Assembly: GCA_051362555.1 (NCBI GenBank)
Contig: CM120646.1
Coordinates: 15,190,001 to 15,254,000 of the forward strand
Reading direction: 5' to 3'
Source: Lingula anatina
Taxonomy: Eukaryota; Animalia; Brachiopoda
DNA length: 64,000 nucleotides
Below are positions 20,017-60,826 of the stretch, one piece after another. Every line of letters starts with the position of its first letter. Position 1 is the first letter of the stretch. The notes below the pieces were generated by a model. It made no database searches, was not told where the DNA came from, and worked only from the letters and a program-made list of their open reading frames with translations. A program made the position numbers and the translations under genes.

Positions 20017-23000
20017 TCATTGCCCGTAATATCCCAAGTCGTGTGATCGAAGAAACATTAATATTTCATCCAGTTTTTGAAGAATCTGGTCTGAAGCTGT
20101 GACGCTTTTGATCAATTGTCTGAATTTCTCTTCGTTGAAATTGTTCATTTTGATCCAATCAATCTTGTCTTGTTTGCCACCTAGCGACAAAATTGCACCG
20201 GAAGCATCTCTCCACGTGTCTTCAAACTTAGCCTCATCCAGCTCGAATTTTCCGTCATGAAAGATGTTATTTCTGATGTCTCTTATCTTGATGATGTGGT
20301 CGATGTCTCCTTGGGATGCTTGACCAGGCTTTAAGACCCAACTTAAGTTCTTTCCATTGGGGTGGAGGTTTCTTATTAAAATGAATAAGAGGGAAATATC
20401 AAAACGTTTTATATCTGCTTGTCCACTGGATGGATACAATTGGTCATACTGTTGAGGGAACATAACTTTTCCCTTTGGCTTCTTTAGTAGTGTGAGACAA
20501 TTTTTTATATCGGAGAGTGCAAGAAATACATTCAACGTCTGGTTTTCTGAAGCGCCCAAGTTGTACTGACCAACGCTCTTTAGTTTCGGAATGACGATAT
20601 CGCGTAGGAAGAACTTACGAAACACACGTGTACCTTCATGTTGGACGAGATATGCGAGCCTGGCGTGGTATTGCATTTGTTGAGGCAAACAACCAACTGG
20701 CTTTGACTGGGCAACACCAGGGTTTGTGTTCACCGGGGGTGTGCAAGGATTCTGTGGCGGAGTAATCGCCGCGGTTTGCGACAGTTGAGCAAATGAGGCG
20801 TTTCCGACACCGTGTGTTTGGTAACCTGCATACGTGGGTTGGTTGGTTGCGTACGGGAAGTACGGGTACAGGAAGCCGGTGTTTAGAGTTGTATTTGTTT
20901 GACCTTTTTCTGTAGCGGACATCATTTGCGATGGATGCCCACCTATGGCTCCCTGCAACTGATGGGGAACCCCCGGAGCGTATTCTGGGGACTGCATTGG
21001 GAAGGCACCGATAGGAACCGACGACAGAGAGGTCTGAAAGCGCGCTGATCCTTGGAGATAACCCTGGTGCCCTTGAGGCATATAACCAATGTTATTGTAA
21101 TATGGTTGATTACCGTGGGTGCCCTCTGGATAGATGGCGGATGGGAAGACAGGTCCAGGGGGTCTGGAAACATTTGATGATTGCACACCTGTATTTTCTG
21201 GGTGGCTAATATTGAATGGCATATGTGGAAAATTGTGACGCGGTCGGAAAGACTGACTCTGTGAATTCTCAATATCATGGGATACATCATGTTCACTCTC
21301 TGTATCTGCAACTTAAATGAAAGTTACATTTTATTATGAATCATACCACCATGTGCATGTACAGTGTTGGCAGAATATCATAACCGATGTGTTTGAATAA
21401 TTAATATAAATCAGACACTAAATATTTTTGTAAAACTTACTACGAGATACGTTGAAGAAAACCTTTTTTCGTAAGCTGCAATCCAACACTGAAGCCTGTT
21501 TTCTGCCCTGCACAGTTGACATCTGCGACACCTCATTGTTAACCTAGCAGAATAAAAAAAATGTATAAAAATTTCACTGTTAAATGCAGTTTTAATCCGC
21601 GGTGCTTTAACATTGACTTCGCAAGATAAAACATTGAAGAAACAATGCTGATAAATTAGTCAAATCATTTTATAACGAATGCGGGTAATATAAGTTCCAA
21701 AAGACAATATTTCTCTGCATAGTTATCAAAGTGGCGTACAAATATGACAAAAGAACATTGAAAATTTGGTCATAGACATTTCTCATCTCTAGCTTCTTCT
21801 CCTTCCCATCTCTATCTCTACGTGTGTTGGTGTGTGCCTGCGCTCGTTTGTATGTGCGTTTCATTGAATCTATCATACCTTAAATGCAGCATTACGCTTT
21901 ATGTAATTCTAATACTTACTTTCAGTAACATTGACAAAACGTCCGATCTGTATGCTTCAGCAGTAAATATTTTTACTATGGATTGAACAAACCATGTCCC
22001 CTTTTCTTTGTCTCGCCACGATACGTAGTCTAAAACAAACAAAAAAGAAAACGTTGCACTTGTCGTTTTTCACATAAAGTGTAAAATTAACTTTATTGCT
22101 AGAAATTGCCTTCGGTGGCTCAGGTTATCCAACGGTAAATACAAACATCCCATTTTAAAAAGCGACACGATCAAGTACATGTACCTGGTGAAGTCGCCTG
22201 TGCCACGAGAAAATCCGACATAGTGGGATCATTGAATTGCTGTGATAATTCATGCGGTGCATCCGGTACATCATTCCCCGAATCAGTGATCTGCGGCAGT
22301 GGCTCCGGTTGTTGCCCTGCTTGTACGTCAGGTAATGTCCCAGAATCCTTTGTCTCTGGGAAAATAAAGAAATAAATGAATATTACATAAAATACCAAGT
22401 GAATCGTGTACTAGTAAAACTGTTAGCCATGTAGTTTCACTTGCTGTATACATGTAGTTGAGCGCTATTAACACTACTATAAAAAATATGTAATATTACA
22501 GAGCACCAAGCTTTGTTAAGTTGTGATTTTATTCTGCTATATTGAAATGAAGCCACTGTAACAAACCTTGTTTGTTTTAAATGCCAGAGATATAATATAA
22601 AAATTCATTTTAATATTAATGGTCTTGTGCTTTTATAACACTAAAAGTTTTATATTCTCAATAAATACCATATATTTACATATGACAAACAAGTAAAAAT
22701 CAATAATTATTATAGCCTTACACAGCCTTACACTTGATCTTAAAGCCATACACATTGTACTCACTTCCCTGGCAAGCCTGAATAAAAATCATTTTCGGTT
22801 TCCCCCTTAGGCCTGGACAGTTTTTGTTATTCAAAATGTTTTTGATCATGTCGTAGGGCAAAAGATAACCATCTGTACCATACACAGCACCATTGTCACC
22901 ATGGCTCAGTAGAAACAGGATGAAGGAATCGTATTTCCTGTGATCTTCGTTTTTACTCTCTTGCTCTATTTCCTCTTTAATTTGCTTCGTTAATAAAAGA

Positions 23001-23087: not shown

Positions 23088-23434
23088 CATGGATTGCTAA
23101 ATCATAAAGTTAAAGCAGTTTGTGCATATATAGTTTTTTTTTAAAAAAAGACGATATATCACCGAAACGCATGTGTACAATTAGGGAGGTATGGTAGATT
23201 GTTATTACTTTGTTAATTCTGATGAACTTACATTTGCCTCTAGGTTATTGATCACTTCTACATCATATTGAAGGTAACGAAGAAGTTTCCTCAAGGCAAC
23301 TACATCAACTTTGGTTCCATCCCGTCTTGGAAGGTCTTTCACAGAAAAGCATTCGTTACTTATAATTAGTGCACGACCCCTTGGCTTGGAGTTGTTTTTG
23401 TACTGAAAAAGGAATACCCATTAAACACGTAGTG

Positions 23435-23477
<43 letters not shown>

Positions 23478-24829
23478 AACGCGTGCACTAGCATCAAGGT
23501 GTGTGTGTGTGTTTGTATGCGTAAATGTGTTAGCCTCATTCGTATGTGATTGTGACATGAAAATTAAATAAACTCGATCAGCACAAAACAGAAAAACAAA
23601 AAATAGCATTTATTTTATATTTAACGAGGTTTTCATACAATAAATGTGACATTTGAGGACATATAGTTGTTGCCGTGTATACTGAAGCTCGTCAGGGCAA
23701 TTAATGAGGGTGTTGCATTGGAAACGAGGTTTCATAATGTGATCAGCAATAAAAATAAAGAAACTTGCCTCATCTTCTGGGCATCTAACTGCGTACATGT
23801 AATAAGACGGATTATCCGGGACAGCTAAATTGATAAAAAATGAGCTAGTGTTTGACATATTAATGAAATAAACATGGCTAAAATGCGTCAATAAAACATC
23901 TGAAAACCCAGAGTTGTCACCTTCTGTCACCAGAGGTTTAGGAAAAACAGAATTCGCAAATATTCATTTAACTTAATTTTCACTGTTTTGTTTTCTACAA
24001 ATGGACCTATACATTGAGGAGTGTTAGTGTAAAACAGAGAATATTGATAATGCACGCTTCCGATCCTATATCTTTTCTACTGCTGATTAAAAGTTTCCTG
24101 TTACTGGCGAAATGAATCATTTTAACTATCAATGGGAATAAGGCATTACTCACCAGGTTTGGGGCGTGGGATGAGGACGTATTGCTGGGCGATCTGTTTG
24201 CCTTCCTTCAAAAGAAACTGGCTGAGTCCAGAGACGAGAGCCGTTTGGGATTTCACAACAGGGCTCTGTCGAGAGTGATAGCCAATCACACCACTTAGGT
24301 GGGCGGTCACGGCTGATGTTGTATCCGCCCACACAATGGAACCGCTATCGCTTTTCGTGAATCCGGGGCCCTCTGATGGTACCACCTGAAACCAATCGGA
24401 GCCGTATGTCTCGCCTGCATTTCCGTAAGAAACTTTATCGGAAGCAGTTCTTATGGCGAGGCGACCTTGTGTTGGCGATTCCTCAGAAAAGGGAACTGTT
24501 TGTATGTCATATTGTCCTAATGTTCTCAAGAACGTTTCTTTAAGCTCGATGAGGATCCAGTTACACGTGCCATCGTCATGCACGTGAAGGCAGTTGCCGA
24601 CTCTGGTTGGATTGCTAGCACTCCCAGTGAGACAGATGTCGCCCTCTTCCCATGTGCTGTCGCTGCTTGTCCCCGTACACGTCAGTCCTACATATACACA
24701 TTTCCCGTCCTTGTCACTAAGAACGAAATAAAGACAAAGTGTCCTGAAGTCCTCCTGTGCAACCTTCTTCCCACTGGCTTTAGGGCCGCTTTGCTCTTTC
24801 CACACTTTACAGGCTAAGGCTGTTTCCAT
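20017..24829 (-). CDS. Multi-domain caspase: degenerate trypsin-like domain + caspase (C14, p20/p10) + P/Q-rich linker + DZIP3-type HEPN domain, ~931 aa
   Basis: Coding exons 24829-24154, 23824-23769, 23402-23232, 22984-22765, 22355-22185, 22029-21920, 21543-21441 and 21305(or 21311)-20017 join in frame with compatible phases. Motifs: YKNNSKPRGRALIISN, RDGTKVD, LLSHG, GKPKMIFIQACQG, PTMSDFLVAQATSPDYVSWR..GTWFVQS, SLRKKVFF. HEPN motifs: FDISLLFILIRNL and RDIRNNIFH. An in-frame TGA lies just upstream of ATG 24829. Confidence 0.88.
20170..20680 (-). other. DZIP3/hRUL138-like HEPN domain (putative RNase) within the caspase gene
   Basis: YHARLAYLVQHEGTRVFRKFF...QQYDQLYP...FDISLLFILIRNL...DIDHIIKIRDIRNNIFH...KFEDTWRDASGAILSLGG matches the PF18738 pattern and has an intact R-x4-H motif. 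Confidence 0.85.
21441..23402 (-). other. Caspase catalytic domain exons (caspase-8/2-like, QACQG)
   Basis: Catalytic His in LLSHG and Cys in QACQG (exon 22765-22984). Intersubunit linker containing DVPD|A. p10 motifs in exons 22185-22355, 21920-22029 and 21441-21543. Confidence 0.95.
23046..23085. repeat. (GA)n microsatellite
   Basis: Direct read. Confidence 0.95.
23436..23474. repeat. (GT)n microsatellite
   Basis: Direct read. Confidence 0.95.
24154..24829 (-). other. Trypsin-like (PA clan, Nal1/fungal-type) pseudo-protease N-terminal domain
   Basis: TLCLYF...YVGLTCTG (cf. TLGxx...LTxxH), NWILIEL (cf. DWALI) and FTKSDSGSIV (cf. FxxxGDSGSxV). The His and Asp positions appear substituted. 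Confidence 0.55.
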
Positions 24830-25029
24830 AATGGGAAGTCAGCGTCTTCTGAAACAAAATGAACATTCCGACTTTTAGGCGCAGTTTCATTCAATTAATT
24901 GAAATGAAAATATTTACCTCGACAACTTTAAATTTGACTTATAAAATATTATTTTATGTAGTTTCGATAAAAACTGGTGTTGATTATCACACAAAACAAT
25001 CAGAATAGTCAGTCCTGTCGACCGTTGCT

Positions 25030-26300: not shown

Positions 26301-26689
26301 CTACATGTAGCTAGGATAAGCCTACAATGTACCTTATTATGTCTTTTCCCCCATCCCACAAGCACAAATAGCCTACAAGTACAACCGCAAGGAAAAATAA
26401 TATATACGCACGGGTCCAGTAAGCAAGCAAGCAAGTATACACACACATAATAAATGAAATTGCTTTATCGTTTAAAACATGCACAAGACATGGGTTATTT
26501 ATGATCCATATGTATACTCTGTGTCAGATGGGATAGTCACCTGATCAGTAGGCGCAATCGACCTTCACAGAGCGACTGACCTATTTGTAGGCCCGAGCCA
26601 CTTTCAAGATCTTTCGAGATAATTTCTAGGATTTAGCCTTGCGTCGATAGTCGATCCACAACACAACAATTCAACGCCTTACACTTGAC

Positions 26690-26945
26690 ATGGAATTACC
26701 TCTCTTTTTAAGACGAATACGTCCATATAAGAGACCAATGGCGCTTTTTCTTTCACACTTCCTAATACCCCTTAGCAAAATTTCCAGTGTTGCTATTTTT
26801 ATACACGCGCATGCGTGTCTGAAGTCTGGGGAATCCCCAGTTTCGCCTACTATGATGAGGCAAATTTTATACAGAGAAATCAGAAAAACCCAATTCCACG
26901 AAAAGTAAAAAGAGGGGGAACACTTAAATATTGACTCTGGAGGTA
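26690..26945. promoter_or_regulatory. Putative bidirectional promoter with a perfect NF-kB/Rel site and an NRF1-like motif
   Basis: CTGGGGAATCCCCAG (26826-26840), AAAATTTCC (~26777) and GCGCATGCGT (26807-26816). Candidate donors on both strands: GAG|GTAATT on minus at ~26699 and GAG|GTATAT on plus at 26942. Lies between divergently oriented genes whose first coding exons both begin after splice acceptors. Confidence 0.6.
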
Positions 26946-30627: not shown

Positions 30628-32124
30628 GATTTCGACGTCTGCATTTGTGTCATCCTTGATATCTTGTTTTCTTCTTTTTGAATAACATTAACTTTAAGTC
30701 TTCTTTTTTGCTGGTGTCTGCTTTTCAAATATTGATACTTGAATGACCTCAAAAAAATTATGACATAGTGCACTGAATGTTTGCGGTTTGTCCGATTCAA
30801 CGTTGATAGCCACCCCTTGCACTCAAAGGAAATGTTTCACAATACAAAAACCGATGAAAAAAGTGATTGTATTCCTGAAATTTTATGCTCTCCACGCAAT
30901 AGGTATGGTATCGTCATTTGAAGAGGTTTCTTTTGTTCTTTCCAAGAAAACGTACGTCCTGTAATTGGCCTTACAGACAACGTGTACCTCAATAAACAGA
31001 ATATGTGAACAGTGTATAAGTTAAGAGTGAAAGTAAATTTCAACTAGAGATATAATGTAAGCGAAGTAAAGTTTAAATTAAGACTTATCTTAAACCTCTT
31101 AGAATTAATTATGACCTTATAAATGTACAGTGTACAACTGAAATGTCATTGTCAACACCAAGGCACCCAGTTGAGCTCATGTACACGCACGATTTTACAC
31201 CTACAACACATACAACCGTGCTATAGATAATGTAGAGGTTTTAAAGAAAGACTTGAAACATTCTTAATTGAAATTTTATATTTTGTCATTTTATCATAAA
31301 AAGACTATTACTGTCATAACCAGCATTAATTATTAGAATTTTTTATTCACCTCAGCTTCAAGTATTTATACATGTATAATAACTGGCAATTCTGATAATT
31401 TTTTTGTAAACAGAAATAAATATAATTATTATTATGCACAAAAACAAAACCCAGTTAATCAATGGTGGCGGTTATATTTCTGACGGGTAGCCTCTGATCC
31501 CATCAAAATTGCCAAATGCATGTTCGTGAAGCCACGCATCAAAATTACCAAGTACGTACGTGTAGCCATTTTCACTTTTAACTAAATATTTTCATCTTCC
31601 GAGAAAACCTGCTTTTAGTCAGTTTATCTGAGCCTGACCTTACAGGAAATTACGCTGCGTAGAGACACTGGGAAGTGTGTATAGAAACTGCGGCGTGGAA
31701 ATAGTGTAATCATCGGTATCAGATTACAAGCCGCAGTATTAAAAGGGGGGGGGGAGCTCAGGTGATTTGCTTCAAACATCTGTAACATTTAAATCTCTCG
31801 TTGCAATTTTATGATATATATTTATATCAATCTTTCTGCGTTAAGTGATATCCATGTATAATTACAAGATATGATAAATGTGAGTATGGTGGATATGTGG
31901 AGGAAAAGCCCCATGCCTCGGGGGCCAAGGTTGCATTGTACGAAGGAATAGAAGGCTGTTCCGTGCAAGGGGGATATCAGACGCATTGCGTTTGATGCGA
32001 TTGAAAGCAGATTACATACGGGAAACTTAATCCTTGATTTCTTTTCACTCTTTTAAATTTGTTAAAATTTGTGAACCCAACTTAATTGACTTTTGCCTTT
32101 TTTGTGATTTTACAGTCAGCGACA

Positions 32125-33036
32125 ATGACAGCACAAATTGACGCTTACTTCCAAAGAAAGGTTCAGCACCGCCCCGCCACAGACGACCTACGGTGTTGGT
32201 GGGACAGGGTAATACAGTGGATTGGACCATTTTTGCTATTAGTGGGCTTCATAGCGATGGTACTCCACGTAAATGTAACAGTCAGGTGCTCAGTGAATGG
32301 CGACATCGACTTAAAAGCCCTCGGTACAAACGCTTCATCTTTGCAGTCCACGACACTACCCAATGCTGATTTTGTAAACGCACAATGCAGTTCCCAACTT
32401 GGATTTCCCACAAAAAGTTTTTCAGGAATTCTGATTGCTCTGGCGTTTATCCTAACTCTAATCGGTAATCTCTGGTTCCGTTTACCGATCACAAAATCTA
32501 AAATGAAAACTTTCAAATCAAGGACAGACGGGTCAATAAAGTCAAGTGGAACTCAAGAAGAAATACAACGTATGATATCAGATCCTGGTTCCACTCCTGT
32601 TCCTGATGCCTACGATGACTTAAAGAAACAACATGAAGAACTATGGCAATATAGACAGTGTCTAGAAAAGAAACGTTTTCTTGGCAGGTTTTACCTGGCC
32701 AAGAGTGTAGTCCAACTGGTGTTTTCCGTTTTGGCGCTAGTGTTCAGTGTGTTTTTTGCGGGTTGGCCATCAATGCACCAGGGGTTGTTTCACTGCACAT
32801 TGGCAAATGTAAGAGCTGCCTACGTTTGTACACGAACCCTTGGGACATGGTTCATTATTCTGAATGTCATTTACGCCATAGCTGCTGCTCTGTACATAGC
32901 TATATTAGTATTTGGTATTGTGTGGTACCTCAAAGAAGGCAGAAAGCCATACGGTCTGGACGAAAACGCAGACAAAATTACTGGCAGACAGAAGTCGACC
33001 AACAAGCCCCAGGAACAGGTAAAAGTGCTAATCTGA
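32125..33036 (+). CDS. LRRC8/pannexin-like 4-TM large-pore channel domain without LRRs (single exon; either stops at 33036 or splices at 33018)
   Basis: LRCWWDRV (cf. LRRC8 LKPWWDVF), DFVNAQC...KSFSGIL...NLWFRLPITKSKMKTF (cf. YVDAVC...KYFPYL...NFWFKFPRTSSKLEHF) and FHCTL...YVCTRTLG (cf. VDCTV...YRCAHPLA). Four hydrophobic segments and extracellular Cys pairs. Acceptor TTTTACAG at 32115. Confidence 0.88.
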   Translation: MTAQIDAYFQRKVQHRPATDDLRCWWDRVIQWIGPFLLLVGFIAMVLHVNVTVRCSVNGDIDLKALGTNASSLQSTTLPNADFVNAQCSSQLGFPTKSFSGILIALAFILTLIGNLWFRLPITKSKMKTFKSRTDGSIKSSGTQEEIQRMISDPGSTPVPDAYDDLKKQHEELWQYRQCLEKKRFLGRFYLAKSVVQLVFSVLALVFSVFFAGWPSMHQGLFHCTLANVRAAYVCTRTLGTWFIILNVIYAIAAALYIAILVFGIVWYLKEGRKPYGLDENADKITGRQKSTNKPQEQVKVLI

Positions 33037-59000: not shown

Positions 59001-60826
59001 TGACTGTCTTCCAAATTATCTTTGTTGATTCATTTCCTGTTGTTACTCTTGTTGTTCTTGTTGTGAAGTTAATTTTTATTGAATAATCACCATTATCGTT
59101 AATCACTTGGACACCAATGCTAACATATGTTAATTATTCTTTTCAAGCGCATATCATTCAGTCTAAAATTGATCAAAAAGGAAGGCAAAGTTTCCGAAGG
59201 TGCAGAAGCAGGACATGGCCATCTTAGCCTGGTGGTTGTCGTGAAGGGCGCAAGGGCCCTTCCTAACACTAGACGAACGAGTAAATTTGACACTTATTGT
59301 TCTGGGTAAGTAAGGCAGGATAATATTAGTATATGTATGTATCACCCTCAAAAGAGGCCAAACAAGTGTCCTCTACGAGGGGAATGTTTGTCTAACAACA
59401 TTCTGTATTAAGCAGCACTTACTTCAGATAATAAATGTATGAAGTATGTAGGCCAATGTGATATAGCGCACTTGTATTCAACAATCAACATTATTGTTTC
59501 TCTACATGTGATTGTACATAACGTCACTACTATGACGCAACACTTAACAACAATGATATCATAATATACATACCGAAATAAACTCTGAAGAGGCCCATAA
59601 GGGCTGAAATAATTGGAACATATACTATATACATTCTGCACAGGAAAGGAATTAAAAAAAGAATCACTTTCTTTCTCTCTGTGTTCTTACAATGAAGCAT
59701 GCTTGTAATTTGGTGACATGTGTCGGTGATCTTTTAATTTGATGAACTTATTTACCTCTGAGGAAATCACTTTTGAACATCAGATTTCTGAGGTTTGAGG
59801 GGATGCGTGCTGTAAAAATGGAGAACTGGTATAGTTATCTTCACCGGAATTATGTGCATTTTATGTACCATTAGCCAACTTATCTTTGGTATCTGGAATA
59901 AAATATATTTAATAAAGCTGACAGTTGTGAGCTAATCAAACATAGGTTAACAAATGAAAATAATCGTGAAGACACATTTTACAAATACGCCGAATTTCGC
60001 AACAAGCTTTAGTCAATGCAAAGGTTTGGAGAGCTATTAAGATATCTAACTGTATACGCTCAAGTGAGAACTACTTATTTGTCCAGAACTGTAGGTCTGA
60101 TTGTGATTCCATTTGAATCGTATCAGTTTCTTTTATGGCGGTGCTTATTATATGAAACATCTTGTACAACTGAAGTATGAATGGGACATTCATACATAAT
60201 GGCGATAAGTGGAATTTATTTCAATGGAGTAATTATTGACCAAACAGTTTTGAATTGATTTTATATATGCAAGTACGAACACGTTTTAATATTTGCAGAA
60301 TTGTCTACCCAAAAGGAAACAGAAAGGCACTTAAAACGAAGGCAATCACGGGACACAATCCTGCTTGGAGAGAGGAATTCGAATTTAGCGTTTCTTCTGT
60401 TGATTTTTTAAGAAAAAAATGTTTGCAACTGAACATTAAGGAATATTTTAGAGTTGGACAGGATGCTCCAGTCGGAGGAATCCGTCTTAACAGGGGAACA
60501 GGTTTGTATAATACATGTAAATTACCCTTTTTAATCCACATTATAATATTTTTCTATTTATGATTTTAATGATTGTCGCCATGCGAAATGTAAAGATTTT
60601 TTTACTTAACGAAAATATGCAATTCGTTTCTCATGTAATTAGTTCTTAGTTCCTTTCTGGGCGAAATAATGTTTTGAATTCTTATACTGTAGGGGAGTAC
60701 AATGGTAATTCAGTGGACTGGATGGACTCCACAGATCAGGAACAAGAAGTGTGGAGAAGATTATTAGACTCTACGCTTGGGGAAGAGATCACTGCCGATT
60801 TACCACTAAGACCTTTAAAAAGTTAG
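32125..60826 (+). CDS. Giant LRRC8-like TM - acidic linker - ~33x fibronectin type III - C2 domain protein (~3,600-3,700 aa, spliced model)
   Basis: Donor CAG|GTAAAA at 33018 (phase 0) joins acceptor TATAG|GTT at 33938 in frame. Linker exons 33938-33979, 34324-34374, 34700-34765, 35329-35379 and 35627-35747. Then phase-1 FN3 exons 36014-58378, a small exon 58878-58914 and C2 exons 59148-59305, 60299-60501 and 60693-60826 (TAG). Confidence 0.7.
33819..33829. promoter_or_regulatory. kB-like palindrome upstream of an in-frame ATG (33950)
   Basis: GGGGATACCCC. A second kB-like GGGAATACC lies near 33319. Confidence 0.3.
36014..58378 (+). CDS. Array of ~33 fibronectin type III exons (RPTP/tenascin-like repeats)
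   Basis: Repeated ~260-300 bp phase-1/1 exons, each with P.P...[LI].W..P.G....Y...L.PG..Y...V (e.g. 38533-38794, 41399-41662, 54982-55260, 57584-57850). Repeats 2 and 3 are split (36622-36882 + ~37296-37408; 37687-37937 + 38288-38384). Confidence 0.93.
50100..52000 (-). mobile_element. Decayed LINE (reverse transcriptase) fragments in the large FN3 intron
   Basis: Minus strand 51524-51709 reads KSLGQDEIPTWIVHDF...PILAIFNTSLREGHVP (cf. KSxGPDxIPxxxL...PLxxIFNxSLxxGxVP). It sits in a ~2.8-kb intron among otherwise short introns. Confidence 0.65.
53712..53860. mobile_element. Short MITE (CAG TSD), related to the palindromic element at ~1347-1513
   Basis: TIR TAACTCGAAAGCATCGC / GCGATGCTTTCGAGTTA. 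Shares TTATGGAATC[AG]AGACGCT with 1433-1450. Confidence 0.65.
56028..56119. repeat. (TA)n and (TG)n microsatellites
   Basis: Direct read. Confidence 0.9.
59148..60826 (+). CDS. C-terminal C2 domain resembling synaptotagmin-like protein (Slp4/5) C2B
   Basis: RISFSLK...LVVVVKGARAL...FDTYCSG|IVYPKG...KTKAITGHNPAWREEF...CLQLNI...VGGIRLNRGTG|EYNGNSVDWMDSTDQEQEVW (cf. Slp4 [30 protein letters not shown]). Confidence 0.85.

Follow-up and report, generated by a model that had tools for sequence, protein, structure and literature searches.

The brachiopod Lingula anatina encodes a predicted caspase whose N-terminal domain probably has a PA-clan fold, that of a trypsin of the NAL1 type. Given this fold, the domain is likely to be non-proteolytic, and the caspase behind it appears intact from its sequence. 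The favoured reading, held tentatively and with less than even confidence, is of an exon-shuffled caspase whose dead trypsin domain would act as a bait or peptide-binding sensor that triggers the caspase.

Gene structure

The window, which is the whole 64-kb stretch of DNA that was analysed, consists of AT-rich animal DNA in which introns and microsatellites occur. Eight exons on its minus strand have compatible phases and join into a single open frame for a predicted 931-aa caspase. AG is found at every acceptor and GT at every donor, except for a GC after exon 2. Coding exon 1 (24154..24829, residues 1-225) holds the trypsin-like domain and runs from an ATG at 24829 to a phase-1 GT donor after 24154; its 676 nt make up 225 codons plus one nucleotide. 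The same exon begins with a 5' UTR (24830..24848), defined by sequence and by an acceptor used by RNA reads. One or more further 5' exons, presumably non-coding, are placed at 26541..26800 (upper bound approximate) by RNA reads and GT donors. The window contains no second copy of exon 1.

The caspase cassette begins with exon 2 (23769..23824, 56 nt, residues 226-244), which is assigned from frame and phases and has homologous segments in the related proteins P0001 and P0003-P0005. Its GC donor at 23768 is a prediction backed by frame and paralogue alignment. Pfam places Peptidase_C14 on exon 3 (23232..23402, E 1.5e-8), where p20 starts, on exon 4 (22765..22984, E 1.6e-22), and on exon 6 (21920..22029, E 3.2e-7), which encodes p10 with its SWR motif. 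The His-Cys dyad is intact in exon 4, with His329 in SHG and Cys372 in QACQG (the QACxG motif). The residues of an Asp-specific S1 pocket, Arg271 (exon 3), Gln370, and Arg437 (exon 6, in SWR), are also present, and we take them to be the equivalents of caspase Arg179, Gln283, and Arg341. Exon 5 (22185..22355), aligned to P0002 and P0004, is the inter-subunit linker and contains the candidate Asp sites ITD/S and DVPD/A, where caspase cleavage may occur. Exon 7 (21441..21543) ends p10 and is placed by its splice sites and by alignment to P0004, a paralogue whose alignment supports exons 2-7 as a whole.

Predicted exon 8 (20017..21305) encodes a Pro/Gln/Gly-rich linker (30% P+Q+G), then a HEPN domain of the DZIP3 type, an RNase-type domain, and the stop codon. 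HEPN_DZIP3 (PF18738) is matched at E 4.5e-23, and the Rx4H motif is intact (RNNIFH, 847-852). The junction between exons 7 and 8 is a prediction from the open frame and canonical splice sites; unspliced, the frame would end within a few codons of exon 7. It is likely that the HEPN domain lies on the same chain as the caspase. The initial annotation of this gene does not mention this C-terminal domain. DZIP3-HEPN is joined to cnidarian NLRs in the portion of PMC8260672 available.

Two other features lie on the plus strand of the window. At 32086-33036, a single long ORF matches the LRRC8 pannexin-like membrane region (E 1.7e-8) and has no LRR match. From about 35900 to 60560, a long run of fibronectin-III exons is followed by a C2-domain exon (60240-60560), in a gene that heads toward the window end.

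Expression and splicing of exon 1

Exon 1 is expressed and is spliced into an exon-2-type segment. RNA reads cover it at low depth in 7/7 different runs. Upstream, four reads of run X4 join 26541 to 24848, and two reads of run X7 join about 26700 to 24841 with seven extra letters between; GT donors are present at both joints. Two upstream ATGs yield ORFs of only 6 and 15 codons. Because an in-frame TGA lies four codons ahead of the ATG at 24829, within the same exon, nothing upstream of that ATG is coding. Exon 1 is thus the N-terminus of the protein.

On the downstream side, eight X7 reads placed at 85% likeness break at 24154 and continue for 30 letters, 19 of which agree with window exon 2; nowhere else in the window is the agreement as good. 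The continuation translates in frame into an exon-2-like peptide. The X7 reads appear to derive from other copies or alleles, since most of them (23/27) are only 90-95% alike to window exon 1. At the locus's own exon 2, a depth of about 26 letters over 23786-23847 in run X8 fits one spliced read; among the reads placed, no joint between exon 1 and this exon 2 reached the listing threshold. The L. anatina RefSeq protein XP_013407924.1 (P0001) carries a 91%-identical copy of exon 1 joined to caspase exons 2-4. The splicing of exon 1 to caspase exons, on which the initial annotation had staked its proposal, is therefore borne out by the X7 reads of related copies and by this protein.

A one-base insertion at 24215, found in 3/10 X7 reads, would put the last part of exon 1 out of frame, so some expressed copies are probably broken. 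The first residues of P0001 correspond to the +1 frame of window exon 1, and its model appears to be mis-started or frameshifted.

The N-terminal slot of the cassette

All named relatives of the window gene are L. anatina proteins. A search with exon 4 scored ten candidates and led to three Lingula caspases, and a cluster look-up added a fourth, P0005. P0004 matches COR-A (Pfam, E 9.7e-19), and P0005 is its cluster mate at >=90%; the two are the COR-caspases XP_013381226.2 and XP_013405061.1. P0003 has the same last pre-caspase residues as these two, and P0002 begins at the caspase (a truncated N-terminus). No CARD or DED was found in the four paralogues P0002-P0005, and Pfam finds no CARD, DED, or Death domain on exon 1.

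The likeness of the paralogue caspases to the window gene starts exactly at exon 2. From there, the cassette of the COR-caspases is 64% identical to that of the window gene, and the junction is the same. The COR-caspases differ in having COR in the N-terminal slot and in gene models that stop just past p10, with no HEPN. Since the likeness starts at exon 2 and COR occupies the same junction, the slot is swappable: exon shuffling at a phase-1 intron has placed the cassette behind either COR or the trypsin-like exon. The trypsin-like exon had been proposed to replace a CARD or DED, a wording that is not supported: among the closest caspases found, the alternative occupant is a ROCO-type COR or a truncated N-terminus. 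P0004 and P0005 may represent the 3' portions of longer Roc-COR genes, and COR-driven caspase activation would be interesting by itself.

Evidence for a trypsin-like fold

Several weak tests agree on a trypsin-like fold for exon 1, and none is decisive alone. The spaced PA-clan-like motifs reported for the 225-aa N-terminus are all in place, with GLTCTG at residues 48-53 (from G48), NWILI at 90-94 (from N90), and SDSGS at 160-164 (from S160). A DSG[SG] motif alone occurs in 2.3% of shuffles. The exon is predicted to be beta-rich.

Direct searches with exon 1 return little. Pfam gives no family at E<=1, and so no Nal1_C; NCBIfam gives none at E<=5, and a search of PDB sequences gives nothing below E 0.57. 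Ribosomal S6e matches at E 0.57-1.7 were rejected. Homologues of exon 1 are absent from 861 longer candidates and from the viral contigs searched, and P0001 is the only one among 141 near-length candidates and among 1.84 billion protein representatives. Twelve weak matches in 401 genomes of one bacterial phylum were rejected as chance; of those inspected, some align with a single membrane-transporter-like family and the rest are short sequences that lack the motifs.

Among the Atlas language-model neighbours of exon 1, the best clusters score 0.97 (181/256 features in common), a score that shuffled proteins reach about 1 in 100 times and that is weakened by a recognition value of 2122, under the mark of 2300. 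The ten best family-bearing matches all fall in one family/clan (Trypsin, Trypsin_2, Nal1_C). Trypsin or Trypsin_2 is found on 10-35% of members of the 0.97 clusters. A cluster at 0.96, which is 98% eukaryote and mostly mollusc, has Nal1_C on 16% of its members. With P0001 as the query, scores are 0.79 and lower and serve as leads only.

Profile tests point the same way with one exception. A first motif pattern run on metagenomes for NAL1-like domains had no match. Fetching by motif from genomes gave 120 loci, of which 75 were usable. Six of the fetched domains were checked and match Nal1_C, Trypsin_2, or S64, and a profile of the fetched domains matches rice NAL1 at E 2e-14. Against an HMM of the 75 NAL1-like bacterial domains, exon 1 scores 5.0 bits, which is reached by 1/3000 plain shuffles and by 10/3000 shuffles with SDSGS fixed. 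A mixed HMM of 34 sequences gives 6.8 bits (1/3000 plain and 5/3000 motif-preserving shuffles). A second motif scan returned 26 loci, and the HMM of the seven LTC-type domains used from it gives 0.4 bits, which is not significant (219/3000 shuffles); pairwise tests of exon 1 against these domains were not significant in 5/7.

Exon 1 and the metagenome ORF L142 are collinear across the regions of His, Asp, and Ser, and 14/5000 shuffles reach their global alignment score. BLASTP between the two gives E 0.28, and the hhalign probability for exon 1 is 15%. L142, L153, and L133 are NAL1-type protease ORFs in metagenome contigs, the last of which ends ahead of Ser; base composition and sequence suggest that all three are animal-like. 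L155-L158, each a trypsin-like ORF of 378 aa in contigs of a viral collection, are nearly identical to one another and similar to L144.

Structure prediction adds a qualified result. AlphaFold on the single sequence of exon 1 gives a pLDDT of 30. With alignment A3, pLDDT is 58.7 and pTM 0.54, and this input is circular because A3, one of four among 262 trial alignments that meet the expected register, was chosen for that register. The same circularity applies to the comparisons of the A3-steered model, in which the best Foldseek match has E 0.12, the best VIA match has Z 7.3 (rmsd 4.1, 145 aligned), and all 50 VIA matches listed are trypsin-fold proteins. A two-copy complex prediction, made with no alignment, scores 0.30 against a mark of 0.32 and is evidence in neither direction. 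AlphaFold with Foldseek had been put forward as the check on the fold; the steered model is compatible with a trypsin-like fold, but circular. A trypsin-like domain in front of the caspase is nonetheless likely, given the Atlas score and HMM scores that beat about 99.7% of motif-preserving shuffles.

Loss of the catalytic His and Asp

An S1 protease depends on a catalytic triad, and a Ser that lacks its His and Asp partners should not be active. In exon 1, the position of His57 is taken by Gly53 or Ser58, that of Asp102 by Asn90, and that of Ser195 by Ser162. In the 262 trial alignments (MAFFT), Ser162 occupies the Ser column every time (262/262), Gly53 the His column in 229/262, and Asn90 the Asp column in just 67/262. 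Pairwise alignments under 60 scoring settings each place Asp on Asn90 in 53 (L142) and 50 (L153) and Ser on Ser162 in 51 and 50, respectively. Over these 120 settings, the His column is never His and is mostly Gly53, Ser58, or a gap. The homologues in A3 have His at the catalytic column in 34/34.

At the Asp position P0001 likewise has Asn; over Gly53 it can be taken to have the same DNA, as its off-frame start indicates. Ser162 and Asp161 are kept in the window and in P0001, and the reads show no residue change in DSGS. If the fold is right, the domain has lost His and Asp but kept the Ser162 cleft, and proteolysis would not be expected. The proposed loss of both residues thus stands, and the domain is probably dead. 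The NAL1-type ORFs L142 and L153 retain all three catalytic residues.

Conservation

The window and P0001 are identical at 148/160 residues of exon 1 and at 72% of p20. The p20 of the COR-caspases is 70-71% identical to that of the window gene and is about as distant as that of P0001. The high identity of exon 1 could reflect selection on the dead domain; alternatively, the exon may have been copied recently to different caspases. Reads show 30 differences over residues 114-221, of which 12 are synonymous against an expected 25% (p = 0.046, with copies pooled and transition bias ignored) and 18 alter the residue. The trypsin-like exon is found only in Lingula-like sequences.

Possible roles of the domain

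No signal peptide or membrane segment is predicted in the protein. Binding would be the simplest task for a dead protease that is conserved in front of a working caspase, and it is the role favoured here. The dead domain would mimic active cytosolic NAL1-type proteases and bind their substrates, their inhibitors, or a pathogen effector. Ligand binding would bring two caspase domains together, the paired caspases would cut the linker at Asp, and this cleavage may free the HEPN domain. A narrower version, which is rather unlikely as a whole, is a defence switch on one animal protein chain, with the build of a bacterial conflict system and an integrated decoy: the pseudo-protease would sense an effector aimed at cytosolic NAL1-type proteases, activate its own caspase, and free the HEPN RNase, all without a death-fold adaptor, and exon shuffling would have swapped the slot between COR and the decoy.

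After the bait or peptide sensor, the readings rank in the order plain dimeriser, passenger, wrong fold, and residual activity. Initiator caspases are switched on by proximity. The domain could bind to itself and in this way dimerise the caspase directly, in place of the COR that occupies this slot in the paralogues. COR is described as a dimerisation domain in the part of PMC7159879 consulted. This reading is unlikely, if the foremost of the alternatives, and constitutive dimerisation of an intact caspase would presumably require a separate brake. Oligomerisation in the manner of NAL1 had been suggested as the driver of activation. According to the sections available of PMC12012508, NAL1 forms its trimer through the ATP-binding domain and its hexamer through an N-terminal strand, and requires about 180 residues in the N-terminal and ATP-binding region. 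Exon 1 has about 28 residues ahead of its first predicted strand and lacks these domains, so NAL1-style assembly is unlikely and that suggestion is weakened.

The domain could instead be a decaying passenger, a once-active NAL1-type protease exon inserted ahead of a caspase whose family undergoes fast birth-and-death, and without any function itself. Its occurrence in one Lingula protein only among the 1.84 billion representatives, the low read depth, the frameshifting insertion, the out-of-frame start of P0001, and the 18/30 read differences that alter a residue all fit such decay. However, the 225-codon frame is open in the window, expression in every run is accompanied by precise splicing at 24154, exon 1 is better conserved than the caspase between the two copies, and a mild synonymous excess goes with an unchanged DSGS, all of which make the passenger less likely still. 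A domain that is not trypsin-like but novel and beta-rich, with motifs similar by coincidence, is improbable; curated families and PDB sequences give no match, hhalign and BLASTP are weak, and one of three HMM tests is negative, but the Atlas score, the two HMM tests with motif-preserving controls, and the collinear L142 match speak against chance. Least probable is that the domain is still a protease, uses a non-standard base, and acts on the caspase or a different substrate. Ser162 and Asp161 are kept and other His are available at 82, 84, 177, and 185, yet none of these His falls on the catalytic column in the 120 pairwise settings. The residue that precedes DSG is Ser, a position that varies among homologues (Gly in 16/34).

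Comparison with known systems

Animal initiator caspases are taught as death-fold-driven. The window protein resembles caspase-2, -8, and -9 in having a long N-terminal module before an intact p20/p10. It differs from them in having no death fold, with a pseudo-protease in front and a predicted HEPN behind. Rice NAL1 (PDB 7Y77, 8PN2; Nal1_C, PF25819) and its bacterial and animal relatives show the same order of motifs as exon 1, namely a GTLG-like strand, LTC, an Asp strand, and DSG[SA]. NAL1-type proteases also share with the window protein the lack of a signal peptide and a weak HMM family match. Unlike NAL1, the window domain has no catalytic His or Asp, no N-terminal or ATP-binding domain, and no Nal1_C match; its loops are shorter and it is fused to a caspase. 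The L. anatina protein XP_013407924.1 (LOC106171938) has the trypsin-like exon on caspase exons 2-4 but starts in another frame, ends in p20, and is annotated as uncharacterised.

Inactive trypsin domains occur in bacterial conflict systems, where the available part of PMC7159879 proposes them as dominant-negative or peptide-binding modules. The MoxR-vWA ternary systems in the same part of that source have, as here, a dead trypsin in a swappable position within a putative defence protein. Trypsin and caspase are described there as mutually exclusive, whereas the window gene has both on one chain, and the likeness is one without shown homology. Excerpted text of PMC8195603 provides a precedent for shuffling among death-fold, trypsin, caspase, and HEPN domains. 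Mytilus coruscus caspases with the odd prodomains FN3 and PB1 (PMC10967218) and ROCO on Aplysia immune proteins (PMC9334734) are likewise known from the portions of those papers available. The trypsin-like/caspase/HEPN architecture was not described in the titles or abstracts searched.

The gene combines known parts by a domain shuffle restricted to one lineage, and its trypsin-like fold is probable. Its reach is limited to one lineage and few copies, in a setting where invertebrate caspases with odd prodomains are already known. At one and the same exon junction, a single caspase cassette is preceded by either of two unrelated modules, neither of them a death fold, and death-fold-independent caspase activation thereby becomes testable. 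The dead copy also suggests that pathogens may target the active cytosolic NAL1-type proteases of invertebrates, which have been little studied.
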